This document shows positions 3,907 to 45,064 of a stretch of DNA of 64,000 nucleotides, piece by piece. Origin of the DNA: a virus. Positions within the stretch are counted from its first letter, which is position 1. Each line of letters opens with the position of its first letter. Where the stretch lies: the IMG/VR virus record IMGVR_UViG_3300042544_003795, positions 1-64,000 of that record, one strand, 5' to 3'. The position numbers and the translations under genes were made by a program. The notes under the pieces are model-generated. The model saw nothing but the letters and a program-made list of their open reading frames with translations. It was not told the origin of the DNA and made no database searches.

Positions 3907-3925
3907 ATAATGTTATACACTTCTT

Positions 3926-28676: not shown

Positions 28677-29005
28677 GCTGGTAAACTGTTAAGCTGCCAA
28701 ATTAGAGAAAGCAATAGAAATAGAGAAAGCAATAGCGCACGCTGCTCTAATAAAACACGCCGCTCAAATAGTGCACGCTTATTATAAACAAAGATACTTG
28801 TGAAAGAAAGTATAGTAGAAATGCTTTTATGTGGGTAAGAAGTTAGTGCCACCCTACCCTATATGAGTTTCCATAGTTTCCATAATTTTCATAAATAGGG
28901 GGTTCCCCTATGGCCGCTTAAAGTATTTTTTATTTGACACGCAAATGCGCAATAACTGTTACACCATGCGCCATGTTACACCATGCGACACGTTTTTTGT
29001 CAAGT

Positions 29006-29040
29006 AAAAAAAAAGGACACGGGGTGAACCCGTGTCCTTT
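29006..29040 (-). terminator. Rho-independent terminator
   Basis: GGACACGGG-GTGAA-CCCGTGTCC hairpin with a T-run on the minus strand. Confidence 0.75.
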
Positions 29041-29051
29041 CGTATTACACC

Positions 29052-29552
29052 CTAGGCGACTAGTTCAAAAGTTTTTCCCCCATATTTTATGGTTTTTATG
29101 GATGAGAATTTAATGGCTTTAAAAGCCACTTGTTTCTTACCGGTGACGCCGACTTCCGCCTGTCTCTTGTTCTCTCCTTTCTTACGTAAGAAAGGGATGA
29201 CCTTCTCGGCTGGTATAATATACCCACCCGAAAAGTAGAAAGAATGCATCGGTGGAGAATTGCGCCTCACGTGCGCCAAGTACAGTTCTCCCTTGTGCTC
29301 GATGATCTTCTTGGACACAAACCACTGACCCCACGGAAGCGGGGCAGACACAAACCCGTCACCTCCCTGCATTCTCACTGCGTTTTGGTAGGATGCACCC
29401 ACAACTATCCTCCCCGTAGACACTTTGAGCAAGTCACTGGGCCCGCCTTTTTTAACTTCTGGCGAAGTTATTATCTTAAGTCCAACGATGAGAGCGCCCA
29501 GTTTTTCACTGAGAAGGGAAATCAATTCTGTAGATGAAATGGTGTTGTTCAT
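29052..29552 (-). CDS. Cassette cargo family A (paralog of 32081 and 46733)
   Basis: Shared VGASY..AV..QG...F.S..LPWG.W and KRQAE.GVTGKKQV. Confidence 0.85.
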   Translation of the reverse strand: MNNTISSTELISLLSEKLGALIVGLKIITSPEVKKGGPSDLLKVSTGRIVVGASYQNAVRMQGGDGFVSAPLPWGQWFVSKKIIEHKGELYLAHVRRNSPPMHSFYFSGGYIIPAEKVIPFLRKKGENKRQAEVGVTGKKQVAFKAIKFSSIKTIKYGGKTFELVA

Positions 29553-29560
29553 AGGACTTC

Positions 29561-29589
29561 ACTATACACCCATTCCTTGAATCACGCAA
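29561..29589 (-). promoter_or_regulatory. Sigma70-type early promoter, near-leaderless (representative of cassette promoters)
   Basis: TTGCGT-17-TATAGT-8-ATG. Confidence 0.75.
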
Positions 29590-29663
29590 GCGAATTTTTC
29601 TAATTGTTTTCGTTTTTCTTGGCGTGCCAATGCATGTTACACCATGCACTATGTTACACCATG

Positions 29664-29828
29664 CGCGAGAATCTAGGGTCCATGCCACACTACCATGGCG
29701 CGCGCATTTGTCAAAAAGAAAAACGTAGGGAAAAACACTATGCGCGAGAATCTAGGGTCCATGCCACACTACCATGGCGCGCGCATTTGTCAAAAAGAAA
29801 AACGTAGGGAAAAACACTATGCGCGAGA
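29664..29828. repeat. 79-bp direct duplication (third copy near 30510)
   Basis: GCGCGAGAATCTAGGGTCC...AAACACTAT repeated with a 79-bp period. Confidence 0.85.
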
Positions 29829-30109
29829 AAAAGTGCACCATACGCTATGTTACACCATACGCTATGTTACACCATGCGGCACGTTTTTCGTCAAGTGAAA
29901 AAACACCTGATGCGCTAGTAGAGGAATCCCCTAGGCGACGGGCCCGGCTAGGGGATTCCCCTATGGCCGCTTAAAGTATTTTTTATTTGACACGCAAATG
30001 CGCAATAACTGTTACACCATTCGCCATGTTACACCATGTGCCATGTTACACCATGTGCCATGTTACACCATATGCCATTTTACACCATGCGACACGTTTT
30101 TTGTCAAGC

Positions 30110-30144
30110 AAAAAAAAAGAGCACGGGATACACCCGTGCTCTTT
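30110..30144 (-). terminator. Rho-independent terminator
   Basis: GAGCACGGG-ATACA-CCCGTGCTC hairpin plus T-run on the minus strand. Confidence 0.75.
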
Positions 30145-30155
30145 CGTATTACACC

Positions 30156-30380
30156 TTAGGACATCCTATACGTCTCACACTTCGGTTCTAGTATGGTATC
30201 CCATACCATATAGAGTCTACCGGGCTCCATTAGAGCCACGAAATTGTTGTTGCCAGTCCATATACTGGCGCTGATGTCGCCGGGCCGCTTGACCCTAAAA
30301 TGGCCGGGCTCAAGCGCCCAGCATGAAGGATACTTGCTCCATGTACGATACATGGGACGGTTAAAAGATAGATTTGTCAT
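30156..30380 (-). CDS. Cassette cargo family B (paralog of 35292)
   Basis: NRP..RTWS...SCW....HFRVKRPGD...YMVWDTI; TTGCGT-17-TAGACT-8-ATG. Confidence 0.8.
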   Translation of the reverse strand: MTNLSFNRPMYRTWSKYPSCWALEPGHFRVKRPGDISASIWTGNNNFVALMEPGRLYMVWDTILEPKCETYRMS

Positions 30381-30838
30381 AGGTCACTAGTCTAAAGCCT
30401 ATCGGCCAATCACGCAAGCGAATTTTTCTAATTCTTTTCATTTTTTTTGGCGTGCCAACGCATGTTACACCATGCACCATGTTACACCATGCACCATGTT
30501 ACACCATGTGCGAGAATCTAGGGTCCATGCCACACTACCATGGCGTGCGCATTTGTCAAAAAGAAAAACGTAGGGAAAAACACTATGCGCGAGAAAAAGT
30601 GCACCATACGCTATGTTACACCATACGCTATGTTACACCATGCGGCACGTTTTTCGTCAAGTGAAAAAACACCTGATGCGCTAGTAGAGGAATCCCCTAG
30701 GCGACGGGCCCGGCTAGGGGATTCCCCTATGGCCGCTTAAGGTATTTTTTATTTGACACACGAATAGGCAATTCGTGTTATACCATGCGCTATGTTACAC
30801 CGTGCGGCATGTTACACCATGCCGCATGTTACACCATC

Positions 30839-31165
30839 CTAGTAATCCATGTGACTATCCATCATGGCGCGCATCCACGGGAGATGATGCGCGTCATCGT
30901 CAAATGGAGAATCGCAACGCATGTTGCTAAAGAAGTCATCCGTGCTTTCGCATTTATGAACGTGCTTGCCGTGCTCGCTTAGGAACCAATGGATGTCTTC
31001 ATCGCACCAATCAGCTTCATCATCTAGGAAAGTGTAAACCTCGCATTGCCACAGTCTTTCGCCGTCTTCCTCAGCGAGCTCGATGGCAATAATAAGGTCT
31101 TTCTCGACTGTCCGGTCTGAGGTCAAATCCACTTGTGCCAAGTACGGGTTTTTATGGTTATTCAT
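30839..31165 (-). CDS. Cassette cargo family C, acidic (paralog of 34630 and 36158)
   Basis: NPYL...EVYTFLDDE...E.IHWFL.EH...NMRCDS; promoter 8 nt before ATG. Confidence 0.8.
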   Translation of the reverse strand: MNNHKNPYLAQVDLTSDRTVEKDLIIAIELAEEDGERLWQCEVYTFLDDEADWCDEDIHWFLSEHGKHVHKCESTDDFFSNMRCDSPFDDDAHHLPWMRAMMDSHMDY

Positions 31166-31491
31166 AGGACCTTAAGATAGCGCATGATTGCCATCCACGC
31201 AAGTGAATTTTTCTAATTGTTTTCATTTTTCTTGGCGTGCCTATGCATGTTACACCATGCACCATGTTACACCATGCACCATATTACACCATGCGGCACG
31301 TTTTTCGTCAAGTGAAAAAACACCTGATGCGCTAGTAGAGGAATCCCCTAGGCGACGGGCCCGGCTAGGGGATTCCCTTATGGTCGCTTAGGGTATTTTT
31401 TATTTGACACACGAATAGGCAATTCGTGTTATACCATGCGCTATGTTACACCGTGCGGCATGTTACACCATGCCGCACATGTTACACCATA

Positions 31492-31677
31492 TTAGGATAT
31501 CCAATATAATGTTCCGTTCAATGTCATCGACCCATCCCACCACTCATATCCAAGATACCTATTTTGGACGCGAAGAGAGCAAAAGTCTTGGCCCCTGCGG
31601 CCCACAATGCGGGTCACAGGAGAGGCGCCCCACATGGTGGGGATGGTGTATTCGCTCCGGGAAAGGTTAGGTTTCAT
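31492..31677 (-). CDS. Cassette cargo family D (paralog of 33568 and 34095)
   Basis: IPTMWG.S.VTRIV.RRGQD.C..EWWDG; start set to ATG 31677 from TTGCGT-17-TAGAGT-8-ATG. Confidence 0.8.
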   Translation of the reverse strand: MKPNLSRSEYTIPTMWGASPVTRIVGRRGQDFCSLRVQNRYLGYEWWDGSMTLNGTLYWIS

Positions 31678-32080
31678 AGAACCCCACTCTACAGCCGTTC
31701 CTTGAATCACGCAAGTGAATTTTTCTAATTGTTTTTATTTTTCTTGGCGTGCCAACGCATGTTACACCATGCACCATGTTACACCATGCACCATGTTACA
31801 CCATGCGGCACGTTTTTCGTCAAGTGAAAAAACACCTGATGCGCTAGTAGAGGAATCCCCTAGGCGACGGGCCCGGCTAGGGGATTCCCTTATGGTCGCT
31901 TAGGGTTGACATTATAAATAATTAAAAGATAGTACACCATGCGGCAAAGTAGCAAAGCGCAAAAGCTAGTACACCTTGCGCAAAAGTAGTCCGCCGTACT
32001 TTTTCCGTCACCTTAAAATAAAATAAAAATAAATTCATTAGAACTTGCGTTTTTCAGGATAGGGCTTATAATATAATCGT

Positions 32081-32584
32081 ATGAACACCACTACTCTATC
32101 TCACTCCGCTTTCCTTTCCATGCTTCAGGGAAAGCTTGGCGCTCTCATTATTGGGCTTGAAACCATCACTTCTCCTGAAGTGAAAAAGGGCGGTCCAGCC
32201 CATGTTCAAAAATACTCCAAAGGGAGGATTGTGGTCGGCGCATCCTACGCCAAAGCCGTCCGCGCACAAGGGGGGGAAGGCTTTGAGTCTTCTTCCCTTC
32301 CATGGGGGGAATGGCTGATTTCAAAGAAGGTAGTCACTCACAAGGGGGAATTTTATCTGGCCCATGTTCGCCGGAACAGTCCTCCCCTTAAATCGTTTTT
32401 CACCTCACAAGGTGAAATAATAGACAAGGCTGATATCAAGCCTTTCCTAAGAAAAGTGTACGAGAACAAGCGCCAAGCTGAAGCAGGGGTGACGGGAAAA
32501 AAGCAGGTTGATTTCAAGCTGATAAAATTCAGTTCTATAAAAACCATAAAATACGGGGGGAGAACTTTTGAACTAGTCTCATAA
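32081..32584 (+). CDS. Cassette cargo family A, inverted orientation
   Basis: Clear paralog of 29052; TTGCGT-16-TATAAT-8-ATG. Confidence 0.85.
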   Translation: MNTTTLSHSAFLSMLQGKLGALIIGLETITSPEVKKGGPAHVQKYSKGRIVVGASYAKAVRAQGGEGFESSSLPWGEWLISKKVVTHKGEFYLAHVRRNSPPLKSFFTSQGEIIDKADIKPFLRKVYENKRQAEAGVTGKKQVDFKLIKFSSIKTIKYGGRTFELVS

Positions 32585-32662
32585 ATTCCCCCTATCCTCC
32601 CCCCCCTACTTTCCCCATAAGGAGAGTAGGGGATAAAATTTCCATAACCGTCAGGATTTCCA

Positions 32663-32975
32663 TAATCGCTATTAAGCGCCATAGCTCTTCGAAGTTGTAG
32701 AATAACCATAAGAGCCGTAGCGGCTGAAAGCCGCATAATCGCTATTAAGCGCTATAGCTCTTCGAAGTTGTAGAATAACCATAAGAGCCGTAGCGGCTGA
32801 AAGCCGCATATTCTCTATTACGCGCCATAGCTCTTCGAAGTTGTAGAATAACCATAAGAGCCGTAGCGGCTGAAAGCCGCATATTCTCTATTACGCGCCA
32901 TAGCTCTTCGAAGTTGTAGAATAACCATAAGAGCCGTAGCGGCTGAAAGCCGCATATTCTCTATTACGCTCCATA
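32663..32975. repeat. 73-bp tandem satellite array 1 (about 4.3 units)
   Basis: GCTCTTCGAAG at 32684, 32757, 32830, 32903. Confidence 0.95.
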
Positions 32976-33073
32976 ACCCTTGGAACTTTTACAATAAGGA
33001 TTTCCCCTAGTCACGCTTAAGGTGAATAAGAGAGTGACGCACTATGAACGATTACGCCACTCTCTCATTCTTT

Positions 33074-33277
33074 TTAACTTGCTTGACGTTTCCTTAGTTC
33101 GTCAGCAAATGTCATGCCTTGGTCCCTGTAGTAGTTCTCATTATTGGGGGCTGGCAATGTCGCCATTGCTTCCGCCGCCAAGCGGCAATCCATTACAACC
33201 CAATTGAGGCTTTCAATTGAGAGAGTCTTGGCTTTAGCTTTCCAATAAATGAAGTCTAGTGACGTGGCTTGTTTCAT
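33074..33277 (-). CDS. Cassette cargo family E (paralog of 48818)
   Basis: ATS.DFI.W..KAKTLS...NYY.DQG.TFADEL; TTGCAG-16-TATAAT-8-ATG. Confidence 0.8.
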   Translation of the reverse strand: MKQATSLDFIYWKAKAKTLSIESLNWVVMDCRLAAEAMATLPAPNNENYYRDQGMTFADELRKRQAS

Positions 33278-33567
33278 GACACCTCATTATAACTCATTCG
33301 TTGTAACCTGCAAATGTTTTTTTCAATTACTTTAGTTTTTTTTACCATAGCAAATCTCATGCCAAGTAAAACATTTTTTCTGTCAAGCAAAAAAAATCCC
33401 TTACACGCTAGTAGAGGAATCCCCTAGGCGGCGCCCCCGGCTAGGGGATTTCCCTATGATAGCTTAAGGTATTTTTTAGTTGACACGCAAATGAGTAATG
33501 CGTGTTACACCATGCGCCATGTTACACCGTGCGACATGTTACACCATGCCGCACATGTTACACCATA

Positions 33568-33753
33568 CTAGGATATCCAATATAATGTGCCGTTTACTGT
33601 CATTGAGCCGTCCCACCACTCATATCCTAGATACCTATTGTTAACGCGAAGAGAGCAAAAGTCTTGGCCCCTACGGCCCACAATGCGGGTCACAGGAGAG
33701 GCACCCCACATGGTGGGGATGGAGTATTCGTTCCGGAAAAGGTTAGGTTTCAT
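33568..33753 (-). CDS. Cassette cargo family D
   Basis: Near-identical protein to 31492 with synonymous divergence. Confidence 0.8.
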   Translation of the reverse strand: MKPNLFRNEYSIPTMWGASPVTRIVGRRGQDFCSLRVNNRYLGYEWWDGSMTVNGTLYWIS

Positions 33754-34094
33754 AGAACCCCACTCTACAGCCGTTCCTTGAATCACGCAAGTGAATTTTT
33801 CTAATTGTTTTCATTTTTCTTGGCGTGCCAATGCATGTTACACCATGCACTATGTTACACCATACGCTATGTTACACCATGCACCATGTTACACCATACG
33901 CCATGTTTTTCGTCAAGTAAAAAAATTCCTTACGAGCTAGTAGAGGAATCCCCTAGCCGGGGCCGCCGCCTAGGGGATTCCCTTATGATTGCTTAGGGTA
34001 TTTTTTAGTTGACACGCAAATGCGCAATGCGTGTTACACCATGCCGCATGTTACACCATGCCGCATGTTACACCATGCGGCATGTTACACCTTG

Positions 34095-34286
34095 TTATCT
34101 GATGGTGTACATCTGTCCAAATATGGACATGGTGCCATCCCACCATTCCATGGCTATAAATATGCCACCAACATGAAGCTCGCAGTAATCTTGCCCCCGG
34201 CGGTTGACTACCCTAGTCACACGGGAAAGAGGACCCCACATGGTGGGGATAGGATGGAGTTGTGATCTGAATAGTCGTGGTATCAT
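34095..34286 (-). CDS. Cassette cargo family D (diverged)
   Basis: IPTMWG, RRGQDYC, EWWDG. Confidence 0.8.
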   Translation of the reverse strand: MIPRLFRSQLHPIPTMWGPLSRVTRVVNRRGQDYCELHVGGIFIAMEWWDGTMSIFGQMYTIR

Positions 34287-34629
34287 AGGACTTCAATATA
34301 CCACATGCCTTGAGAGACGCAAGCGAATTTTTCTAATTGTTTTCATTTTTCTTGGCGTGCCTATGCATGTTACACCATGCACTATGTTACACCATACGCT
34401 ATGTTACACCATGCATCATGTTACACCATACGCCATGTTTTTCGTCAAGTAAAAAAATTCCTTACGAGCTAGTAGAGGAATCCCCTAGCCGGGGCCGCCG
34501 CCTAGGGGATTACCCTATAATCGCTTAGGGTATTTTTTAGTTGACACGCGAATGCGCAATAACTGTTACACCATGCGCTATGTTACACCGTGCGGCATGT
34601 TACACCATGCCGCATGTTACACCATGCTC

Positions 34630-34965
34630 TTAATAATCCATTTCGACTTCGAATAGTTCGAACATCCATGGGAGACGACTCGCGCCATCATCCCATACGC
34701 TATCGCAACGCATGTTGCGAAAAAACTCGTCAGTACTTTCGTACTTGTGTATTATACCATGATGTTCCGTTAGGAACCAGTGAATTTCCTCGTCTCCCCA
34801 GTATTCTCCCACTTCGTCATCCAAGAATGTATATACTTCATCCTGAGTGACAGGATCAGAGTCTTCCATTGCCATTTGAAGCGCTATAACTATCTGCGCT
34901 TCAATCGTCTTCTCAGACGATAGGTTGATCAAGCTGAGATAAGGATGGTTACTGTTGTTTATCAT
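34630..34965 (-). CDS. Cassette cargo family C
   Basis: Paralog of 30839. Confidence 0.8.
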   Translation of the reverse strand: MINNSNHPYLSLINLSSEKTIEAQIVIALQMAMEDSDPVTQDEVYTFLDDEVGEYWGDEEIHWFLTEHHGIIHKYESTDEFFRNMRCDSVWDDGASRLPWMFELFEVEMDY

Positions 34966-35291
34966 CGGACCTCACTATACATCCGTTCCTTGAATCACGC
35001 AAGTGAATTTTTCTAATTGTTTTCATTTTTCTTGGCGTGCCAACGCATGTTACACCATGCACCATGTTACACCATGCACCATGTTACACCATGCGGCATG
35101 TTTTCTGTCAAGCAAAAAAATCCCTTACGCGCTAGTAGAGGAATCCCCTAGCCGAGCCCGCCGCCTAGGGGATTACCCTATAATCGCTTAGGGTATTTTT
35201 TAGTTGACACGCAAATGCGCAATGCGTGTTACACCATGCGCCATGTTACACCGTGCGACATGTTACACCATGCCGCACATGTTACACCACC

Positions 35292-35522
35292 CTAGGACAT
35301 CCTGTATATTCGACACTCAAAGTTTGACCCTATGGTGTCCCACACCATGTACATTTTCCCGCTTTCCATCAGACCGATAAATCGGCCTTCCGCCGTCCAC
35401 ATGTTCAGATTTACATCTCCCGGTCTTTTGACTCTGAAATGTGGCTGGTCAATTGACCAGCAGGAGACTGTGGACGACCATGTGCGAAAAGAAGGACGGT
35501 TGGCAGTAGTTGTGTTGCTCAT
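35292..35522 (-). CDS. Cassette cargo family B
   Basis: Paralog of 30156. Confidence 0.8.
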   Translation of the reverse strand: MSNTTTANRPSFRTWSSTVSCWSIDQPHFRVKRPGDVNLNMWTAEGRFIGLMESGKMYMVWDTIGSNFECRIYRMS

Positions 35523-35800
35523 AGGACTTCACTATACATCCGTTCCTTGAATCACGCAAGCGAATTTTTTTAATTGTTTTCTTTTTTCTTGGCGTGCCAA
35601 TGCATGTTACACCATGCACCATGTTACACCATACGCTATGTTACACCATGCACCATGTTACACCATACGCCATGTTTTTCGTCAAGTGAAAAAACACCTG
35701 ATGCGCTAGTAGAGGAATCCACTAGGCGACGGGCCCGGCTAGGGGATTCCCCTATGGCCTCTTAAGGGATTCCCCTAAGTTATAAAAACCAGCATCCCTA

Positions 35801-36131
35801 TAATCTCTATTAAGCGCTATAGCTCTTCGAAGTCGTAGAGTAGCTATAAGAGCCATAGCGGCTGAAAGCCGCATAATCGCTATTAAGCACTATAGCTCTT
35901 CGAAGTCGTAGAGTAGCTATAAGAGCCATAGCGGCTGAAAGCCGCATAATCGCTATTAAGCGCCATAGCTCTTCGAAGTCGTAGAGTAGCTATAAGAGCC
36001 ATAGCGGCTGAAAGCCGCATAATCGCTATTAAGCGCCATAGCTCTTCGAAGTTGTAGAATAACCATAAGAGCCGTAGCGGCTGAAAGCCGCATAATCGCT
36101 ATTAAGCGCTATAGCTCTTCGAAGTCGTAGA
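35801..36131. repeat. 73-bp tandem satellite array 2 (about 4.5 units)
   Basis: GCTCTTCGAAG at 35822, 35895, 35968, 36041, 36114. Confidence 0.95.
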
Positions 36132-36157
36132 AAATCTATAATGAATGTTACATCATC

Positions 36158-36421
36158 TTAAGAGTCGTAAAACTCTTTTAGAAATTTCTCCGGAGTTTCT
36201 TTGTATTTTTTATAAATCCTGCGGTCGTCTAAGACGCATAAAATTTCCTCGTGACAGATATATTCTCTTATATCCAATAGATAATAAAAGACCTCCCACA
36301 TTTGGACTTGATCATCGTCCTCATATGCCATTTGCACAACAATCTCCAAATCCGCAAAAGCTTCTTCGAGATTGTTCAAAGAACACTGCTGGAGGTAGGG
36401 GTTCTTATTGGTGTTCATCAT
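36158..36421 (-). CDS. Cassette cargo family C (diverged)
   Basis: NKNPYL...EV.Y.LLD...EEI; start at 36421 from TTGCGT-17-TATGTT-8-ATG. Confidence 0.7.
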   Translation of the reverse strand: MMNTNKNPYLQQCSLNNLEEAFADLEIVVQMAYEDDDQVQMWEVFYYLLDIREYICHEEILCVLDDRRIYKKYKETPEKFLKEFYDS

Positions 36422-36741
36422 CAGGTCACAACATACAGCCGACTCTCTAATCACGCAAGAGTTTTTTTCAATCGTTTTTGTTTTTTTTAGCGCAGTAATA
36501 CATGTTACACCATGCTACATGTTATATCATGGTACCCTAACCGTTAGTAAGGGATTCCCCTACGCGGCGTCCCCGTCTAGGGGATTCCTCTATGGAACGC
36601 TAAGGGAATTTTTTAGTTGACACGCAAATGCGCAATCCGTGTTACACCATGTCATATGTTACACCATGCGACGCGCCAAGATAAATGAAATAAATCGAAA
36701 ATATCCGTTGCGTCTTTCGCGGCCTGTGTTATAGTAAGGAC

Positions 36742-36948
36742 ATGAAAGAAACCCACTATCTCCTATCTGGCCTAAAACCCACAGGCGAGCACCTCGCCCT
36801 TTGGGCTTTAGAGTCCATAGTTAAGCTGTCCCGCCTCCACGGTCATCCCTTAGAAAGACCGGAAGCCACGGAGTGGCTGTCACAGTCTACAGAAAAGTCT
36901 CTTGACCGAGACTGGGTAGAATGGCGATTAGATGGCATCTTTGACTAA
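36742..36948 (+). CDS. Cassette cargo, hypothetical
   Basis: AAAATATCCGTTGCGT..TATAGT promoter directly before ATG. Confidence 0.7.
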   Translation: MKETHYLLSGLKPTGEHLALWALESIVKLSRLHGHPLERPEATEWLSQSTEKSLDRDWVEWRLDGIFD

Positions 36949-37031
36949 GGTGCTATCTCCCTCCCTTAAAAAGTTAAAAATAATCAAAAGGAACTCGACA
37001 CACCCCGAGTTCTATGGTAAACTCCTATACT

Positions 37032-37556
37032 ATGAAATCTCTACTCTTTATAGCCTTTATCTGTTTCACAGCTTTTGCTTATGGCATCTCTTCACCGAGT
37101 GTCAATGGTAAAAGGTTTGTCCCTGACTATTTTCAGATTGCGCTTGACGGCGTAAAGAGTTTTGAGGGTTTCAGAGAGAAGCCATATAAATGTCCGGCGG
37201 GAGTGCGGACTATAGGATACGGCTTTACTGGCCCTTTAGCTAAGGTTAAAAATATCAGTAAAGAAGACGCAGATCTTCTCTTGACTAAAGAGCTTCACCA
37301 ATATGTCTTGACTGTTGAAGATAATGTGAAAGTCCCCTTGACCCGCAATCAGCTTTATGCACTGGCCAGTTTCACATACAACTGCGGAGAAGGAAACCTT
37401 CGCCAGCTTGTCAACGGAAAAAATAGGCTAAACTCCGGAAACTATAAATCAGTTGAGAGGTTGTTACCTAAGTATCGTAAAGGCGGCGGGAAGGTTCTGA
37501 AAGGATTGCAAAAGAGGCGGGAGTGGGAAGTTAAGCTGTGGAAAGGTGAGCTTTAA
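37032..37556 (+). CDS. GH24 phage lysozyme with N-terminal signal/SAR segment
   Basis: EGFREKPYKCPAGVRTIGYG, ALASFTYNCG, GL.KRR.WE; start 37032 from TCGACA-17-TAAACT-8-ATG. Confidence 0.9.
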   Translation: MKSLLFIAFICFTAFAYGISSPSVNGKRFVPDYFQIALDGVKSFEGFREKPYKCPAGVRTIGYGFTGPLAKVKNISKEDADLLLTKELHQYVLTVEDNVKVPLTRNQLYALASFTYNCGEGNLRQLVNGKNRLNSGNYKSVERLLPKYRKGGGKVLKGLQKRREWEVKLWKGEL

Positions 37557-37764
37557 AAGTCAAGCGCCGCCTCCCCCTAAGGGGGAGTAGGGGATTCCCC
37601 TACGCGGCGTCCCCGGCTAGGGGATTCCCTTATGGTCGCTTAGGGGAATTTTTCGCTTGACCCATAAAAACGCAATAGTTGTTACACCATACGACGCGCA
37701 AAAATAAACGAAAACAATTGAAAATATCCGTTGCGTTCCTCACTGCATGTGATATAATGAAATC

Positions 37765-38037
37765 GTGAAACTTGACTCTCTTATCGCCCAGCTCGAAGCT
37801 CTCAAGGCCATGTACGGCCCAGACATAGAGGTCGCCTTCAAGGCGGCGTCAGAAACACAAAGTACGCCAATCACAAGCGCCGCCTTCAATTTCGAGGAGG
37901 CAACCAGAGATTGGATTATATCCCTAGCCTCGGAGGTCGAAGAGGATGAATGCGACTATTCCGGCGAATGGGACGAAGCAGAAAACGACTACGAGAGGAG
38001 AATGGAGGGATGGATGGACTCCAGAGGGGAGGAGTAG
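37765..38037 (+). CDS. Cassette cargo, acidic hypothetical
   Basis: GTG start after TTGCGT..TATAAT. Confidence 0.7.
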   Translation: MKLDSLIAQLEALKAMYGPDIEVAFKAASETQSTPITSAAFNFEEATRDWIISLASEVEEDECDYSGEWDEAENDYERRMEGWMDSRGEE

Positions 38038-38251
38038 TCAAGGGAAAAAATCTAAGAACCCCCCTAAGAGGGGGTAGGGGATTCCCCTACGCGGCGTCCC
38101 CGGCTAGGGGATTCCCCTATGGTACGATAAGGGAATTTTTTAGTTGACTCTCAAATGCGCAATACATGTTACACCATGCGGCGAGCCAAGATATATGAAA
38201 TAAATCGAAAATATCCGTTGCATTTTTTCCTCCCTGTGATATACTGATTAC

Positions 38252-38479
38252 ATGAGTTTACCACATCTTAAGTATATACATTTATCACGATTCGATAAAT
38301 TGGACTTCTTGATTAACAATTGCGGCGAAGGTTTTGTTAAAGAGTGCACTCTCTTGACCGAATTAGTCGGGTACATGTCTGACTCCGACTTTTCTGATTT
38401 CTTTGATAAAATCTGCCGTGAGTGGGGTATTGAGGTATCAGAAGAAATCTGCTGGGATTGGGAGACTGAAGGAGTCTAA
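38252..38479 (+). CDS. Cassette cargo family F (paralog of 42355)
   Basis: RF.KLDFLI.NC...FVKEC.LLTELVGYMSDSDFSDFFDK. Confidence 0.8.
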   Translation: MSLPHLKYIHLSRFDKLDFLINNCGEGFVKECTLLTELVGYMSDSDFSDFFDKICREWGIEVSEEICWDWETEGV

Positions 38480-38699
38480 GGGGAGACGATTAGAAAGTCA
38501 AGAAAACAACTCCCCTAAGGGGGAGTAGGGGATTCCCCTACGCGGCGTCCCCGGCTAGGGGATTCCCCTATGGTACGATAAGGGAATTTTTAGTTGACTC
38601 ATAAATGCGCAATGCGTGTTACACCATCCCACGACAAAAAAAAGAAAAAGAATTGAAAATATCCGTTGCTTTCCTGAAACGCTGGACTATAGTCAAGAC

Positions 38700-39113
38700 A
38701 TGACTCTTCAATCACCACCCGCTATCATCAAAGTTCCTTCCAACGTCTTGGCCGATGCCATGATCAACCGCTACTTCATCGCTGGCTTCCTGAACTGTTC
38801 AGAAGAGCAAATCTCTGACTGGGATATCAACTGGGAGAAAGGACACCTTTCTGTCACCTTTATCCCTGAATCCGATTTTTGGGGAGACTCTCTCAGGGAG
38901 TACCTCAACATAGAGTTCCAGCTTTTCGGAGAGGACATAGAAGGAAACGTCTGGGAGTTTCCCAACTCAGACAGAGTTCTAGAGTGGTTCTCTCTAGAGA
39001 AGAAAGGCCCCATGGGATCATGGAACGCGGGAGTAGCGGCTCACAAAGACAGCATGGAATGGGTGTGCTGGATGATAGCAAATAGCAAGGACGGCCTACT
39101 GAAAGATATGTAA
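38700..39113 (+). CDS. Cassette cargo, acidic hypothetical
   Basis: Start moved to ATG 38700 after TTGCTT..TATAGT. Confidence 0.7.
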   Translation: MTLQSPPAIIKVPSNVLADAMINRYFIAGFLNCSEEQISDWDINWEKGHLSVTFIPESDFWGDSLREYLNIEFQLFGEDIEGNVWEFPNSDRVLEWFSLEKKGPMGSWNAGVAAHKDSMEWVCWMIANSKDGLLKDM

Positions 39114-39337
39114 AGTTGTTACACCAAGCAAGTCAAATAAAAAACTCCCCTAAGGGGGAGTAGGGGATTCCCCTACGCGGCGTCCCCGGCTAGGGGATTC
39201 CCCTATGGTCGCTTAGGGGAATTTTTATGTTGACTCATGAAAAAATAATTCATGTTACACCATCGCCTCCAAAGAAAAAGAAAAACAATTCAAAATATCC
39301 GTTGACTCTCTCTTGGCTTGTGTTATAGTATGGGACT

Positions 39338-39541
39338 ATGAATACCCTATATGTTGTCGAGGCCGAGTCCGGAGTTCACCACGGGAATTGCGAGCTAGGA
39401 GTGGGCCTAAGCCGCGCCGCCGCCATATGTGATGCCTACGGCCCCGGAGGTAAGCTCCCCCGCCATGCGTGGGTCAATATCGTCTCCCGCGAAAAGGAGC
39501 CGAAAAGGTTCGAGCGCCTAAAGGCTCAAAATGGCCTTTAG
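39338..39541 (+). CDS. Cassette cargo, hypothetical
   Basis: TTGACT..TATAGT promoter before ATG. Confidence 0.7.
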   Translation: MNTLYVVEAESGVHHGNCELGVGLSRAAAICDAYGPGGKLPRHAWVNIVSREKEPKRFERLKAQNGL

Positions 39542-39660
39542 TGTCAAGCGAAAAACACCCCTAGGACACCCTAGGGGATTTCCCTACGCGGGGACGCCGC
39601 CTAGGGGATTCCTCTATGATTGCTTAGGGGATTTGCCTAGGGTATAAAAACCATCATTCC

Positions 39661-39912
39661 TATAATCACTATTAAGGTAAATAGCTCTTCGAAGTTGTAT
39701 AATCACTATTAAAGGCTATAGCTCTTCGAAGTTGTAGAATATCCATAAGAGCCGTAGCGGCTGAAAGCCGCATATTCTCTATTACGCGCCATAGCTCTTC
39801 GAAGTTGTAGAATACCCATAAGAGCCGTAGCGGCTGAAAGCCGCATATTCTCTATTACGCGCCATAGCTCTTCGAAGTTGTATAATAACTATTAAGAGCT
39901 ATAACCCTTCAA
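39661..39912. repeat. Satellite array 3 (37-bp monomer then 73-bp units)
   Basis: GCTCTTCGAAG at 39684, 39721, 39794, 39867. Confidence 0.9.
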
Positions 39913-39917
39913 ACTTT

Positions 39918-40244
39918 TCAAATCAATCCCTTCACAATTAACCATGAAGGAGAACCATAACTATCCGTTCCGTCAGGTTCAACCGTTTCACCTAGGATAG
40001 ACTTGCAATTGCCGTTACTGTCCCATCGTGATAGACTTGACACAGAAGGTTCCTTCTTCCCTAGCATTTTAATAGCCGTACCATTGGAGATTTTAAACTC
40101 TGACTCTGAACCGTACACTTTGACACGAGGACGATGACCGATAGCAGTCTCTTCCCATCTAATAGAGAATTTGTTCCCCGCTTTCAGGACACTGCCGTCT
40201 TTCATTTTGATTTCAGTTTTATTGATAAATGAGTGAGTTTTCAT
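39918..40244 (-). CDS. Hypothetical protein
   Basis: C....G..VEPDG.D..G.PSWL motif seen in phage early proteins. Confidence 0.7.
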   Translation of the reverse strand: MKTHSFINKTEIKMKDGSVLKAGNKFSIRWEETAIGHRPRVKVYGSESEFKISNGTAIKMLGKKEPSVSSLSRWDSNGNCKSILGETVEPDGTDSYGSPSWLIVKGLI

Positions 40245-40301
40245 GTATTCAGTTTACCACACGGTTTTCAGATAGCAAAAAGTATTTTCAATTATTTTGT
40301 T

Positions 40302-40601
40302 TTATTGATAAAAGAAATTTTTGGCCCTCATCACAAGAGAAAGATATTGTGAGATTCTGATATGATGAAAAAGTCCACGATCAGGAGATTTTAAATAACC
40401 TTTAATTCCACCGTACTTAGCTATTGACTTATCCGGGTTACGTGGTGGATACAACGGGTTACCCTTGCCTTCTATCTGACCCCAGATATCTACTGTATCG
40501 CCCCACACGGCGGCAGTCAGTCGGATAGTTCCACCCTGTAGTGATGGAACCGTTAGGGTGACGTGATATGGGTGAAGGCCGGGTTGCAATTCAGGTTTCA
40601 T
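40302..40601 (-). CDS. Hypothetical protein
   Basis: 99 aa ORF. Confidence 0.6.
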   Translation of the reverse strand: MKPELQPGLHPYHVTLTVPSLQGGTIRLTAAVWGDTVDIWGQIEGKGNPLYPPRNPDKSIAKYGGIKGYLKSPDRGLFHHIRISQYLSLVMRAKNFFYQ

Positions 40602-40603
40602 TT

Positions 40604-40846
40604 TTAGTCGCTGAGAAGTTCATCTCTTTCCTCATTGTAAATAGACAAACATGAAGGCCTTTCAAAATCAATATCGCCTAACGATAAATCGCCTAAAGAG
40701 ACTTTTTTCCATTCTACGTTGTCAAGCGTATAATGAAAAACGTCCCACTTGACATAGCAATCTTTGACTTGATCCCAGCTATCGACTGGAATATCGACAT
40801 CTGTTGAAGAGCCAACCGAATAAGACGCATCAATTGTGATTTTCAT
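40604..40846 (-). CDS. Cargo family G (paralog of 41927)
   Basis: MK.....SY.V.SS...D.P......KD......V.HY.L....W.K..L. Confidence 0.7.
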   Translation of the reverse strand: MKITIDASYSVGSSTDVDIPVDSWDQVKDCYVKWDVFHYTLDNVEWKKVSLGDLSLGDIDFERPSCLSIYNEERDELLSD

Positions 40847-40976
40847 TTTATAATAAGTTAAGAACTAGTGAAAGCTAAACATCGCTTTCATGTGATTAGT
40901 ATATCACAGCCATCGAAAAACTCAACGGATATTTTTAATTCTTTTGATTTATTTTAAGAGTGTACTATACTAAAGC

Positions 40977-41153
40977 ATGAGCCTAGACAAAGCAATCGAA
41001 CACAATAAGGAGAAAAGAGCACCGTTCCGGAAAAGTAAACGCTTTGATAGAACTTGCCGCAATCATGGAAAGTGTCCATACTGTGAAGGGAACAGAACTT
41101 TTCAATCAGAAAAAGAACTTCAGAGAATAGAAAGCTTTGGAGAAGAAGAATAG
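40977..41153 (+). CDS. Small Cys/His-containing phage protein (58 aa, not in ORF track)
   Basis: MSLDKAIEHNKEKRAPFRKSKRFDRTCRNHGKCPYCEGNR. Confidence 0.7.
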   Translation: MSLDKAIEHNKEKRAPFRKSKRFDRTCRNHGKCPYCEGNRTFQSEKELQRIESFGEEE

Positions 41154-41337
41154 AGAATGTCAAGCACCGCCTCCCCTTAAGTGGGAATAGGGGATTACCC
41201 TATGCCTACCCCCCCGCATAGGGGATTCCCTTATAGTGTCTTAGGGTTGACTTGGCACGCCGCCTGCTTGTGTAAAGAAAATTGAAAACAATCGAAAATA
41301 TCCGTTGCAATCTAATACCCCTGTGACATAATAAAGC

Positions 41338-41577
41338 ATGAAACTATCTAAACTGATTAAGGTTTTGCAAAATGCGAAAAAAGAACTAGGGGACGTTCCT
41401 GTTATGGTGATGGATGAAGAAATGGGGAGTTGGGAATATCTCTCTGAGGTTCTCAAACTTCATCCTTATACTGGACCTTACGGGTGTATGGATAGAACCA
41501 AACCCGCAGATTCGATTGGCCTTGTTAGAAATAAAGGTTTCTCATCTAAAGACCTGCTACTAGGACAGAGAGATTAA
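41338..41577 (+). CDS. Cassette cargo, hypothetical
   Basis: MKLSKLI..LQ..K...GDVPV; N-terminus resembles 37765. Confidence 0.7.
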   Translation: MKLSKLIKVLQNAKKELGDVPVMVMDEEMGSWEYLSEVLKLHPYTGPYGCMDRTKPADSIGLVRNKGFSSKDLLLGQRD

Positions 41578-41630
41578 AAAGAATTGAAAATATCCGTTGC
41601 ATCTATCCTAAAGTGTGATATAGTAAAGTC

Positions 41631-41909
41631 GTGAAAGATGATCTTCTTTACATACCTCGCCTTGCTGAACTTTACGATTGGTTTCGTATTGAGGAACAGA
41701 ATGGTGAGATGATTGCTTGCGGTGGAATATTTCCAGCTTATGAGATAAAGGCTGGCCAGCGATGGCAAGGTTCTAGTGGTCACACTGTTCTAGTCGATGA
41801 AGTGGATTCCTATTCAGTTCATTACTCATGGGACGAACAGGGAGTAAAGAAAACCCATAAAAAATCCCACTTCGCTTTCCAGTGCCGGTATTGTCTTGTT
41901 TTATCCTAA
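41631..41909 (+). CDS. Hypothetical protein
   Basis: FAFQCRY C-terminal motif; own promoter. Confidence 0.65.
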   Translation: MKDDLLYIPRLAELYDWFRIEEQNGEMIACGGIFPAYEIKAGQRWQGSSGHTVLVDEVDSYSVHYSWDEQGVKKTHKKSHFAFQCRYCLVLS

Positions 41910-41926
41910 TCTAACCTAATAACAAA

Positions 41927-42175
41927 ATGAAAGTTGAAATTGTCACATCATACAGAGTATTCTCATCTGCCTTTATCGACCTCCCTATTGAAAATATAAA
42001 GGAAATTAAAGATTACTTTATAATCGACAATGTTTTGCATTACTCATTGAAAGATGAAAAATGGGAAAAAATCACCTTGCCAGAGGGTGAGGATGAATTC
42101 GAAAAATCTAGTGAAGTGAAATTCTATAGTGCTGAGTCTCACCAAACAGTAATGAAAATGTCTAAGTCTATCTAA
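41927..42175 (+). CDS. Cargo family G
   Basis: Paralog of 40604. Confidence 0.65.
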   Translation: MKVEIVTSYRVFSSAFIDLPIENIKEIKDYFIIDNVLHYSLKDEKWEKITLPEGEDEFEKSSEVKFYSAESHQTVMKMSKSI

Positions 42176-42354
42176 GTCAAGCTCCTCCTCCCCCTAAGGG
42201 GGAGTAGGGGATTCCCCTACGCGGCGTCCCCGGCTAGGGGATTCCCCTATAGCGTCTTAGGGTTGACTTGGCACGCCGCCTGCTTATGCAAAGAAAATTG
42301 AAAACAATTGAAAATATCCGTTGCTCTTTTCCTTCCCTGTGATATACTAATTAC

Positions 42355-42549
42355 ATGAGAACACGATTCGAAAAACTAGACTTCCTGATTGAAAATTGCA
42401 ACGAGACTTTTGTTAAAGAGTGCGTACTCTTGACCGAGCTCGTAGGCTATATGTCGGATTCCGACTTCTCCGACTTTTTTGACAAAGTTTGTAGGGAGTG
42501 GGACATTCGCATAGGACTTTATTGGGACAGTACAGAAGAAACTGAATAA
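42355..42549 (+). CDS. Cassette cargo family F
   Basis: Paralog of 38252. Confidence 0.8.
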   Translation: MRTRFEKLDFLIENCNETFVKECVLLTELVGYMSDSDFSDFFDKVCREWDIRIGLYWDSTEETE

Positions 42550-42769
42550 AAGTCAAGCGCCGCCTCCCCGAAAGGGGAGTAGGGGATTCCCCTACGCGGC
42601 GTCCCCGGCTAGGGGATTCCCCTAGGATGCTTTAGTAGATTACCCTAGGGTAGCTTAGGGTTGACAAATTTTTAGGCAAAGTTGGCACGCCTTCTGCTAT
42701 GCAAAGAAAAATGCAATTAATCGAAAGTATTTGTTGATTGATTGCTTAATAGGGTTATTGTGTGGGACT

Positions 42770-43783
42770 ATGAATAAAGAAATTGCATCTTGCTTCTCCT
42801 CCGTCGTTGGCCAATCCCAGATTGTCGCCAATCGTATCCTGTCCCATAGCGCCTTCGCTGCGGGCAATAATTCGCCCTATAGCGTTTGTTACACCGGAGC
42901 TGCGGGCTTAGGTAAAACTCAATTGCTCCGCGCGGAGTTAGCGGCCCGCGCCATGGCAATCCAGATTCGATTTGGACGTGAAGCCAATGTTTTCATGCTC
43001 CGGTCACCTCAGGAAATCCGCCTTGCTGGCGAGGCATTCTTTGAGTTTATCGGCAATGTCTCGGACGGTGACGGCGTTGTTATCGACGAGCTTCATGAGA
43101 TTGAAATCTCGTCTACCGTTCAACTCCGGAAACTTAAGCTCATCTTGAAGGGCTTGCTTGACAACGGGCAAGGCAAAATCCGTTCCGTGAAGATTGACGA
43201 TGATACGGTCATCTCCCGGCCTAAAGAGGAAATCTTTTTCGCCGCTGGCACTAACTTCCCAGAGAAAATCAAGGACGGTTCCGCCATCATCTCCCGGTTT
43301 GGTGGAGAGACGCCGCTGGACCTTTATACAGAGGATGAATTGACCAAAATTCTTAAACTCATGAGTGAGTCCGCCGGGCTTCGTGTGAACGAGAATACGC
43401 TTCTCCTTCTCGCCAAGTGTGGCCGTGGAACTGCCCGCCCACTAGAATCAATCGTTAGCTACCTTAGCAAAGTAGCATCAATCTCAGAGAAGACGACTAT
43501 CAATCGCGCGGAGGCACTAGAGGCAATGCGGGCTTTGAGTTTGTTTCCCCTTGGCGTTTCAAAGCGGGAAATCTCAATCCTTATCCGCAGCAAGGGCCAA
43601 GGCTTAGCGGTCAGAATGTTGCCAGTGATTTTTGCCGTCGAGCCGAAATCAGTCAATCAAAGCGTTAGCTTTCTTTGTGCTTATGGCTTCCTCAGCCTAC
43701 GGGGCGGAGTTGTCAATCTGTCCCCTCGCGGCGCGGCCTACTTGGACCAGTTAAAGGCTGAAAAGTTCTCTTTAGAATCCTAG
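42770..43783 (+). CDS. RuvB-like AAA+ ATPase
   Basis: VVGQ, GAAGLGKT Walker A, VIDELHEI Walker B, SRFG, Y..DEL..IL, RGTAR sensor II, winged-helix C-terminus; start set at ATG 42770. Confidence 0.8.
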   Translation: MNKEIASCFSSVVGQSQIVANRILSHSAFAAGNNSPYSVCYTGAAGLGKTQLLRAELAARAMAIQIRFGREANVFMLRSPQEIRLAGEAFFEFIGNVSDGDGVVIDELHEIEISSTVQLRKLKLILKGLLDNGQGKIRSVKIDDDTVISRPKEEIFFAAGTNFPEKIKDGSAIISRFGGETPLDLYTEDELTKILKLMSESAGLRVNENTLLLLAKCGRGTARPLESIVSYLSKVASISEKTTINRAEALEAMRALSLFPLGVSKREISILIRSKGQGLAVRMLPVIFAVEPKSVNQSVSFLCAYGFLSLRGGVVNLSPRGAAYLDQLKAEKFSLES

Positions 43784-43822
43784 GCCTTTTATCCCTCCCT
43801 TCTTTCTTACCTTACTTACCTT

Positions 43823-44149
43823 ATGAATGTTTCAATCTCCTACTCGCCATCGTCTCTCTCAGATTTTCTCGCCGCTTTGGAAGCGGTAAAAGGCATGAAC
43901 GGGAAAAGCGTTTCCGTTTCGCCAGCTTCTCTGAACTGTCCTGTTTCAAAGTACGTAGAAAAAACTGGAGCTTCCCGTTACCGTCGCACTCCGGAAGGTT
44001 GCCAATCCGGGCTTTCTAATTTGGACGACCTGAAAAAGCGGGCTTTGCTAGGCGACGCCATAGCGGCAGAATGTCTAGGCGACGAAATCCCGGAAAGTGA
44101 TTCTGAGTTGTCAAGCGAAGATAATTCGCCGATTGAAGCGATTTTCTAA
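43823..44149 (+). CDS. Hypothetical protein co-transcribed with the RuvB-like gene
   Basis: 108 aa ORF followed by a terminator. Confidence 0.65.
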   Translation: MNVSISYSPSSLSDFLAALEAVKGMNGKSVSVSPASLNCPVSKYVEKTGASRYRRTPEGCQSGLSNLDDLKKRALLGDAIAAECLGDEIPESDSELSSEDNSPIEAIF

Positions 44150-44158
44150 TTGACAGGA

Positions 44159-44190
44159 AAGGGCGGCTGATTTTCAGCCGCTCTTTTTTT
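44159..44190 (+). terminator. Rho-independent terminator
   Basis: GCGGCTGA-TTT-TCAGCCGC followed by a T-run. Confidence 0.8.
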
Positions 44191-44365
44191 TGCATTGTCA
44201 ACCCTTAATCTACCCTAGAGGAATCCATTAGAGCACCCTAGGGGAATCCCCTAGCCGGGGACGCCGCGTAGGGGAATCCCCTAGTAAGGCCTAAGGTTTA
44301 CATCTTAATGAAACATAATACACCTTATTCATCCCCCCCCCATAAGGGGGAGGTATTTTGATATG

Positions 44366-45064
44366 TTACACCTGCACCACGAAACCAGAGTTGTCTTTTC
44401 TGGCTTTGCCTTTATCGACAAGCCCAACCACCACGCCCCTAGTGTCGAGGAAACGAAGGTCATTCTTGTCACCGTTCACAACCGGCGTTCCATGCCAGCT
44501 CTCGGGCAGTGAGCGACGGAAAACAACCGCCACGTTTCCACCTCGTGAGCGGATGGCGTGAACGTGCCGCTCGTTTGACTCACTGCGGGAGAATGTCAAA
44601 CTGTAGTTGGCGGGCATTTTCCCGTCGAGAAAATCCATCATGCGTTTGTACCCCTTGGTGTAATCGTACCAAGTAACCTCAGGGAAAAGCTCGAACAAGT
44701 TTTTCCCGTCCTGAACGTCGAGCGATTCCCACGGGATATCGCTGGTAAGGTTAAGCCGGATGGCCAACCGCATCCCATTTTTCTTGGCTTTCTTAATAGC
44801 CGCTTGAATTTCCTTAATTAGTTGTTTAGAGAATAGGTCAAAATTCTCCTTCAAGAGTTTAGTCTTGGCGATTCTAGCCGCTTGAACCGTCGAGAATGCA
44901 CCATGGCCTGAGGTGTTTAAACAGGAGAAGGTGCAACCACGGCTCGCCCAAGTGCATACGTTATAACCCGACAGATTGGCGGGAGCCAAATGGATGCCGA
45001 GAGTCGTCCAGCCTTCCTTCGTGCCCTTCATGATTTTTGCGTTCGCCGTAGTGAGTAATTTCAT
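44366..45064 (-). CDS. GP88-family phage protein (Cys-cluster, radical-SAM-like)
   Basis: LAPA..SG.NVC..AS.GC...CL..SG, RLN.TSDI.W, YDYTK, DLRFLD. Confidence 0.75.
   Translation of the reverse strand: MKLLTTANAKIMKGTKEGWTTLGIHLAPANLSGYNVCTWASRGCTFSCLNTSGHGAFSTVQAARIAKTKLLKENFDLFSKQLIKEIQAAIKKAKKNGMRLAIRLNLTSDIPWESLDVQDGKNLFELFPEVTWYDYTKGYKRMMDFLDGKMPANYSLTFSRSESNERHVHAIRSRGGNVAVVFRRSLPESWHGTPVVNGDKNDLRFLDTRGVVVGLVDKGKARKDNSGFVVQV

Follow-up and report, generated by a model that had tools for sequence, protein, structure and literature searches.

The DNA analysed here (the window) comprises positions 1 to 64,000 of IMG/VR record IMGVR_UViG_3300042544_003795, which represents a large uncultured lake phage, and the subject of this work is an array of small genes within it (Table 1). 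The predicted early genes of this phage are dozens of small, unrelated open reading frames (ORFs) embedded in near-identical promoter and terminator modules (predicted; together, the scaffold) that touch the start and the stop codon of each gene. Eleven of these units, hereinafter cassettes with their cargo ORFs, are encoded on the minus strand and all others on the plus strand, each with its own predicted promoter. Four lake assemblies that are independent of each other contain the array at 100% identity, in contigs about 170 kb long, and it is therefore real and not an assembly artefact; proteins of this array are encoded in roughly 150 public contig sets. The preliminary description of the 29-36.4 kb segment held that unrelated genes are bounded exactly by the scaffold at both ends and took this as a sign of precise ORF capture or swapping, as in integron cassettes. 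These claims were examined in a pooled sample of 109 cassettes, with cargo of 43 BLASTP families, from the window phage and seven relatives. Pattern scans of IMG/VR yielded one true relative and a metagenome scan at least one more; the relatives named here are G1 (L004/L200), L100, L201, L202, L206, L217, L218 and L219.

Table 1. Cassettes, scaffold modules, repeats and other genes of the window discussed in the text (aa, amino acids; T module, terminator module).
Feature	Position	Strand	Gene-strand 3' end	Remarks
Cassette A	29052-29552	-	TAG directly followed by GGTGTAATA, no gap	166 aa, ORFan; ATG 8 nt after TATAGT
Cassette B1	30156-30380	-	TAA directly followed by GGTGTAATA, no gap	74 aa; 3' module as in cassette A (89% identical), cargo unrelated
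Cassette C1	30839-31165	-	TAG-G-ATGGTGTAACATG	108 aa; whole 651-bp unit missing in a near-identical strain
Cassette D1	31492-31677	-	TAA-T-ATGGTGTAA	61 aa from the promoter-adjoining ATG; stop, T, then ATGGTGTAA repeats
Family-A paralogue	32081-32584	+		Own predicted leaderless promoter, own terminator; kept in L217, L218, L219
Cassette F	33074-33277	-		
Cassette D2	33568-33753	-	TAG-T-ATGG...	
Cassette D3	34095-34286	-	TAA-CAA-GGTGTAA	
Cassette C2	34630-34965	-	TAA-GAGC-ATGGTGTAA	
Cassette B2	35292-35522	-	TAG-GGT-GGTGTAA	
Cassette C3	36158-36421	-	TAA-G-ATGATGTAA	
Plus-strand part of array	36503-42665	+		Cassettes 36742, 37765, 38252, 38700, 39338, 40977, 41631, 42355; canonical unit order
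Lysozyme gene	37014-37556	+		Rides behind cassette 36742
GP88-family gene (PF17338)	44366-45064	-	Stop is the TAA within a TGTTACACC motif	Predicted leaderless promoter (8 nt)
Family-A paralogue outside scaffold	46733-47239	-		35% identical; leader of about 65 nt
Leaderless (predicted) cassette outside array	57661-58041	-		Counterpart sits inside the array in G1
Promoter module, minus-array example	31166-31247	-		A-rich upstream element, TTGCGT, 17-nt spacer, -10 hexamer, 8 nt, ATG
T module, example	30656-30757			GTCAAG...TTGAC; imperfect hairpin of about 100 nt on either strand
Other T modules	29890, 31307, 31819, 33382, 33912, 34444, 35107, 37559, 38037, 38497, 39132, 41159, 42176, 42552, 45151			
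17-bp TGTTACACC array, example	30776-30835	+		Directly 3' of a cassette stop
73-bp tandem repeat array	32661-32997			Twin of 35800-36131; the pair recombined to give the 3357-bp deletion of a sister strain
73-bp tandem repeat array, third copy	39718-39899			
Large terminase subunit gene	16400-18277			Profile search
Sigma-factor-like gene (sigma-70 region-2 protein)	13664-14341			Profile search

The cargo of the array is diverse, ranging from 42 to 337 aa over the 43 families, and mostly without recognizable function. Scans against Pfam and PHROG matched only GP88 and lysozyme in the window and, in the relatives, L5 gp82; a helical AlphaFold model of family C (predicted local distance difference test score, pLDDT, 75) had no Foldseek match in PDB or BFVD, and the model of family A (pLDDT 40) is not usable. 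Nevertheless, these are real genes because the ratios of nonsynonymous to synonymous substitution rates (dN/dS) in orthologue and paralogue pairs are 0.06-0.56. The notion that unrelated genes share the same junctions stands insofar as unrelated cargo does occupy a common scaffold; the nine genes on which it had been based, however, belong to only four families, namely A (29052), B (30156 and 35292), C (30839, 34630 and 36158) and D (31492, 33568 and 34095), and thus represent about 4-5 independent junctions rather than nine.

The promoter module consists of an A-rich tract (GAAAATATCCG or AGAAAAATTCGC), TTGCGT, a spacer of 16-17 nt that includes TGn, and TATAGT, with the start codon 5-9 nt after the -10 hexamer; this arrangement resembles a sigma70-like promoter whose -35 element is preceded by an AT-rich tract. 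Even where the cargo is unrelated, copies of this module in different units share 81-97% identity. The distance of 8 nt between the -10 hexamer and the ATG that had been described previously holds for all 11 minus-strand cassettes, including every minus-strand gene in the 29-36.4 kb segment, and in the pooled sample the distance is 6 nt in 67 cassettes (the mode), 8 nt in 23 (the second mode), 5 nt in 11, and 7 nt and 9 nt in four each. A custom pattern that requires the promoter and, 5-9 nt past its -10 hexamer, the start of an ORF matches 30 times in the window, compared to 0-6 times in shuffled sequences. A standard promoter scan found 25 sites where 25.9 were expected; it misses the array promoters because TTGCGT agrees with TTGACA at only three of six positions. 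The same geometry is found outside the array, upstream of the genes at 42770, 44366, 46209, 48818, 54894, 55147 and 57661. No Shine-Dalgarno sequence was detected ahead of any of the 40 gene starts inspected, the upstream regions of which are A/T-rich, and on the simplest reading, the first genes of transcripts in this phage would be leaderless. The 5' register is accounted for by this predicted leaderless, sigma70-like promoter geometry: the ATG would belong to the promoter module, so that identity between units reaches exactly to it. Two other promoter candidates were rejected, TGGCGTGCCAATGCA as a sigma54 site, the spacing of which is off by one, and TTGAC-N17-TGTTAC as a sigma70 promoter, which has neither A at -11 nor T at -7.

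The T module contains two palindromes of the TAGGGGATTCCCCTA type that flank a GC-rich spacer, as well as A/T runs. From GTCAAG to CTTGAC, either strand is predicted to form a single long hairpin, with free energies of -50 to -62 kcal/mol and z-scores of -3.5 to -7.6, and canonical hairpin-plus-T-run terminators facing each way are predicted within it. Cassette A has a simple predicted intrinsic terminator at 29011-29041, following its stop codon and GGTGTAATA. In the canonical unit, which is clearest on the plus strand and in the relatives, the stop codon is followed after 0-3 nt by GTCAAG, a small hairpin, the two TAGGGGATTCCCCTA palindromes around the GC-rich spacer, a T run and TTGAC, and then, after 17-18 nt, by one or two copies of the 9-mer motif TGTTACACC, the A-rich CGAAAATATCCG, TTGCGT, 16 nt with TGn, TATAGT, 6 nt and the next ATG. 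In the 29-36.4 kb segment, the part consisting of promoter and ORF is inverted, with the terminator and the 9-mer remaining plus-oriented. Alignment of the scaffold across units bears out the claim that identity breaks at start and stop codons. Column conservation extends up to the ATG and starts again at (A)AGTCAAG past the stop codon, so that the scaffold spans the interval from 0-3 nt past one stop to the next start; among units with unrelated cargo, scaffold identity is 0.81-0.95, and the adjoining 30 nt at either end of the ORFs show the background level of about 0.5. Two peculiarities of individual scaffold copies were observed. The GC-rich spacer between the palindromes is reverse-complemented in some of the T modules (29926-29950 compared to 33950-33975; also 39575-39600), as inversion or template switching between inverted arms would produce, and a 79-bp unit that is single at 30505-30595 is duplicated 2.2 times within one scaffold, between two 17-mer arrays (29656-29829).

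The 9-mer motif is far more frequent than expected by chance, with 80 matches allowing at most one mismatch, compared to 8.2 +/- 2.9 in shuffled sequences. On both sides of each cassette of the 29-36.4 kb segment it is amplified into arrays of a 17-bp unit; there are about 18 such arrays between 28957 and 35664, with 2-5 copies each, all on the plus strand and with strain-variable copy numbers. Exact TGTTACACC copies are confined to one strand irrespective of gene orientation, the counts being 66:0 in the window (28957-44372), 28:0 in G1, 41:0 in L217 and 10:0 in L201, with all 11 copies on one strand in L100; the motif is missing altogether in L202 and L206, the lysozymes of which are 67-71% identical. 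Read on the minus strand, the 17-mer consists of GTGTAA, 8 nt and ATG GTG TAA, that is, a Met-Val-stop minigene the codons of which build the next copy. The spacing is the same as in the late genes of this phage: in eight late or structural genes, the motif (A/G)GTGTA(A/T), at 3920, 4302, 6675, 7585, 9736, 10355, 12063 and 18324, is followed by an ATG 8-10 nt on. This GTGTAW motif is likely to be a late promoter that gives rise to leaderless or near-leaderless mRNAs, and the sigma-70 region-2 protein encoded in the window is a candidate for the protein that reads it. Longer repeats are present as well: the three 73-bp arrays and one 49-bp array (45419-45798) have a common core, CTTCGAAG / GCGCTTAATA, and lie at the borders of the sub-arrays.

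At the 3' end of the cassettes, the distances described previously are reproduced when the coordinates are rechecked. The stop codon lies 3 nt from the end of TGTTACACC at 30839, 31492, 33568, 34095 and 35292 (reverse strand), and also at 36158, but in the latter case the motif has one mismatch (TGTTACATC); the gap widens to 6 nt at 34630 and closes at 29052 and 30156, where the variant TATTACACC directly adjoins the stop (0 nt), and the gene at 44366 terminates on the motif's own TAA (TTA at 44366-44368, within the motif at 44364-44372). The apparent exactness of the 3-nt gap comes from the ruler, which is the 9-mer core instead of the full 17-bp unit. On the gene strand, this unit is ATGGTGTAACATGCNNC, which usually begins 1 nt past the stop (TAG-G-ATGGTGTAA), and across the genes in question, its onset varies from 0 to 4 nt past the stop, with the cut point inside the unit shifting by 0-3 nt (Table 1).

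In the homologous arrays of the pooled sample, the register proved to be tight, but with 3' offsets that scatter from -1 to +6 nt and outliers of 17 and 33 nt. The sequence 3' of the stop is GTCAA in 35 cassettes of 15 families, with the mode of the offset at 3 nt, and the 9-mer in 22 cassettes of six families, where the gap is 3 nt in 17 cassettes (four families), 0 nt in three, and 4 nt and 6 nt in a single cassette each. In the remaining cassettes, the next promoter directly follows the stop, its -35 element being located at 16-23 nt in six of seven cases. The exceptions are the 17-nt offset at 38252, a 33-nt remnant ahead of GTCAAG in L218, and a stop that abuts a truncated T module in L217; the G1 copy of the gene at 54894 is four codons shorter, with its stop just ahead of the junction. 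The more distant relatives L202 and L206, which have predicted leaderless promoters and hairpins and no 9-mer, show looser, non-uniform 3' spacing. The 3' junction is thus tight but is not one single phosphodiester. Compaction is general in this genome, given that the spacers between late genes are also very short.

The tight 3' register could be kept by function, if the stop codon had to adjoin either the hairpin base or the initial ATGGTGTAA unit, be it a minigene or a late-promoter-like element, for reasons of ribosome release or re-initiation, or of termination control. Along these lines, the gene strand of families C and D reads stop-N-ATG GTG TAA, the 17-mer reproduces the spacing of the eight late-gene starts, and the base of the hairpin abuts the stop in 15 families. 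However, the plus-strand 38700 family shows the same 3-nt gap to the motif, where no ATG exists that way round, the offsets vary, and the relatives that lack the motif manage without it, so we consider this explanation unlikely. Alternatively, the scaffold might be an expression slot where new ORFs arise in situ, with the promoter providing the ATG and the first in-frame stop ahead of the terminator ending the ORF. The position of the ATG within the conserved module, the preponderance of ORFans without Pfam or PHROG matches, the gene that ends on the TAA of the motif, and the presence, as read from the 17-mer array, of a TAA within three repeats in every frame would all be compatible with such an origin. 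The cargo, on the other hand, evolves under purifying selection, for several families, diverged paralogues or homologues exist in different surroundings, and nearly all ORFs stop on a codon of their own just before the scaffold and not within it, all of which makes birth in place very unlikely.

Comparison of the genomes indicates how the scaffold and the cargo change. The T modules group by genome rather than by orthologous position and include genome-specific spacer variants, such as the 21-nt variant found throughout G1 and the 14-nt variant of the window and L100; the scaffold copies thus evolve in concert within each genome. Scaffold and cargo variants are reassorted: the paralogues B1 and B2 differ in their 3' modules, one of which is shared by the unrelated cassettes A and B1, and the families follow the order B-C-D in one stretch and D-D-C-B in another on a single strand. 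Presence, absence and order of cassettes vary among G1, L100, L201, L217 and L218, with joints located right after stop codons, and cassette C3 is placed elsewhere in L217. The ORF at 57661, outside the array, is 93% identical overall to a cassette inside the array of G1 and near-identical in the middle, the homology extending from the -10 hexamer to the stop. Among the cargo homologues outside the array, the family-A paralogue at 46733 has neither the terminator module nor the motif and is preceded by a leader of about 65 nt. In the case of 48818, the divergence from 33074 is too great for placing the junctions; this gene shows the leaderless promoter geometry outside the array.

The strain variants record recent events. 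Strain Ga0485181_000036, which is 99.9-100% identical elsewhere, lacks 651 bp that correspond to exactly one unit (C1), and diagnostic single-nucleotide polymorphisms map the crossover to a part of the T module that is identical over 97 nt. The same strain also lacks 3357 bp with five cassettes (F, D2, D3, C2 and B2), lost via two 73-bp arrays, and in a third strain, one 17-mer is missing. The mapped strain events are homologous, not site-specific. Divergence between the window and G1 is a mosaic, with synonymous divergence (dS) of 0.05-2.1 in the cassettes and 0.12-2.4 in backbone genes, and recombination among the relatives is thus general, since both classes of genes are mosaic.

These observations bear on the possibility that no mobility is involved and that one ancestral unit was duplicated in tandem, with the coding parts diverging past recognition and the scaffold held by selection. 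The array does contain the paralogue groups A, B, C and D, in which synonymous sites are saturated despite the 81-97% identity of the scaffolds. However, a single ancestral gene is hard to reconcile with 43 families of such different lengths, among them the distinct Pfam families GP88 and, in the relatives, L5 gp82, with the homologues that part of the cargo has outside the scaffold, with the reassortment of cargo and scaffold variants, or with the grouping of T modules by genome; we regard this explanation as extremely improbable.

Integron-like, site-specific capture, whereby a dedicated recombinase would recognize the 9-mer or the palindromic element and move ORF cassettes at a fixed nucleotide, is also quite improbable. 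The resemblance to integrons lies in single-gene units that are split by a repeated imperfect palindrome and carry cargo of mostly unassigned function. Direct TGTTACACC copies flank cassettes in either gene orientation, the 3-nt gap between stop and motif is found in four families, the GTCAAG...CTTGAC bracket with its internal palindromes is superficially attC-like, and the palindrome spacer is inverted in some copies. Nevertheless, the integron reading fails on four counts: no integrase was detected in the 64-kb window, attC cores are lacking, the cassettes are neither promoterless nor all oriented one way, and the crossover point is not fixed. Pfam scans of 50 ORFs of the 64-kb window (nearly all those of at least 120 aa included), out of a genome of 170 kb, detected no integrase or resolvase, either an IntI-type or other tyrosine recombinase or a serine recombinase. 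The bracket GTCAAG...(C/G)TTGAC is unlike the RYYYAAC...GTTRRRY cores of attC; each unit has its own predicted promoter, and units face both ways, in contrast to the promoterless cassettes of integrons that are read one way from Pc. There is no fixed crossover nucleotide, given the scattered 3' offsets and the one junction inside a truncated T module; the recent mapped events are homologous crossovers in long identity tracts and not at the ends of ORFs; and the distant relatives without the 9-mer retain the promoter and hairpin design. Accordingly, of the original proposal of ORF capture or swapping, the swapping of cargo is retained, by homologous recombination in the scaffold, and precise integron-like capture is not.

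The explanation we favour, with a probability of about 0.68, is that the array is an early hyperplastic block in which the promoter and terminator modules supply general homologous recombination with portable homology, a role for which they are suited because they are long and nearly identical. Each small early gene would be transcribed as a unit of its own, with two conserved non-coding modules as its building blocks. The mRNA would probably be leaderless, making the ATG in effect part of the promoter and fixing the 5' register. The terminator module, a two-way hairpin of about 100 nt (GTCAAG...CTTGAC), would have been joined in this lineage by the strand-polar 17-bp TGTTACACC repeats, and in a compact genome, with nothing else between the stop and the module, the 3' register would be tight although not exact. 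Recombination between module copies would homogenize the modules, resulting in concerted evolution, delete, duplicate and reorder whole units within a genome, and swap units between co-infecting relatives. Recombination within the modules also entails that identity ends where unrelated coding sequence starts.

Several points weigh against this explanation. Leaderless starts and terminator activity are predictions made from the sequence. Homologous recombination shuffles existing units and does not account for the initial placing of a new ORF at 0-3 nt from the modules; in particular, the A paralogues at 29052 and 32081 are homologous to within one codon of the stop, with flanks that show no homology. 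The 3-nt gap between stop and 9-mer is found repeatedly, in four families and for genes of either orientation, which compaction alone does not predict, and neither the one-strand polarity of TGTTACACC nor its amplification on the flanks of inverted cassettes is explained. Finally, low-dS cassettes, which were considered as proof of cassette-wise transfer, lose much of their weight because the backbone is equally mosaic and are no specific evidence of such transfer. Given that the origin of the junctions, the 3-nt gap and the strand polarity are not accounted for, we assign a small probability to an active motif-guided process, in which a phage enzyme would cut 3 nt from the strand-polar TGTTACACC core and insert promoter-plus-ORF units either way. 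Such a process would amount to a novel type of gene capture in phages, by which libraries of leaderless early genes are assembled. Under the explanation based on homologous recombination between modules, the 3' junctions most likely originated by imprecise joining, followed by trimming or selection.

The remainder of the window offers some indications of the affinity of this phage. The large terminase subunit shows a weak match to Terminase_6N (T4-type N-terminal domain), and its best phage matches, about 25% identical, are to Clostridioides and Bacillus phages; the gene adjoins that of an ERCC4-family nuclease (15480-16397). A nucleotide search of a collection of deposited phages with the window found no match. 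Three tRNAs and glycosyltransferases are also encoded. The G+C content of the 28-50 kb block is 40-49%, mostly about 45%, compared to about 32% in the structural and tRNA-bearing flanks. The Pfam families GP88 and L5 gp82 take their names from mycobacteriophage proteins, a weak hint that the host might be actinobacterial; the lack of Shine-Dalgarno sequences at the inspected starts is the only other hint to the host.

Among known systems, lambdoid morons and the host-takeover blocks of SPO1 and T5 are also small accessory genes with their own promoter and terminator that are clustered and gained or lost as units. Their flanks, however, share no homogenized scaffold, and they have ordinary leaders with ribosome-binding sites, in contrast to the homogenized scaffold and the predicted leaderless starts of the array described here. 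If the early programme of this phage, about 30 genes, is indeed translated from leaderless mRNAs as the module geometry suggests, it would be unusual among phages with mapped transcript starts.

The scaffold system is a (predicted) leaderless variant of the PeSL (promoter-early stem-loop) regulatory cassettes of T4-like phages (Arbiol et al., 2010, PMC2839356; Comeau et al., 2014, PMC4122927) and not an integron. Both are composite intergenic motifs in which a sigma70-like early promoter, preceded by an AT-rich tract, is combined with a stem-loop that ends transcription (promoter and terminator being predicted in the present case); both reach from the stop codon of one gene to the start codon of the next, as described for the PeSL motif (PMC2839356, Fig. 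2 legend); both are concentrated in hyperplastic, ORFan-filled regions; and in both, genes are gained or lost between close relatives through recombination between motif copies, as exemplified here by the 651-bp unit. A further trait of PeSL cassettes is excised mini-circles with one chimeric motif. The differences are equally clear. No Shine-Dalgarno sequence precedes any of the inspected genes of this phage, and the start codon appears to lie at the transcript start; the scaffold is about 200 bp long, compared to under 100 in PeSL, and much more uniform; the terminator is a two-way hairpin of about 100 nt with twin palindromes; strand-polar 17-bp arrays are added; cassettes occur in both orientations; and, judging from its terminase, the phage itself is not demonstrably T4-like. 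The PeSL principle, in which shared modules provide portable homology that shuffles accessory genes, thus does not seem to be confined to T4-like coliphages. The form that it takes in this abundant lineage of freshwater phages is extreme and highly regular, and natural strain variants catch the loss of a single unit in the act. The system is a clean natural model of the gain, loss and reordering of ORFans.

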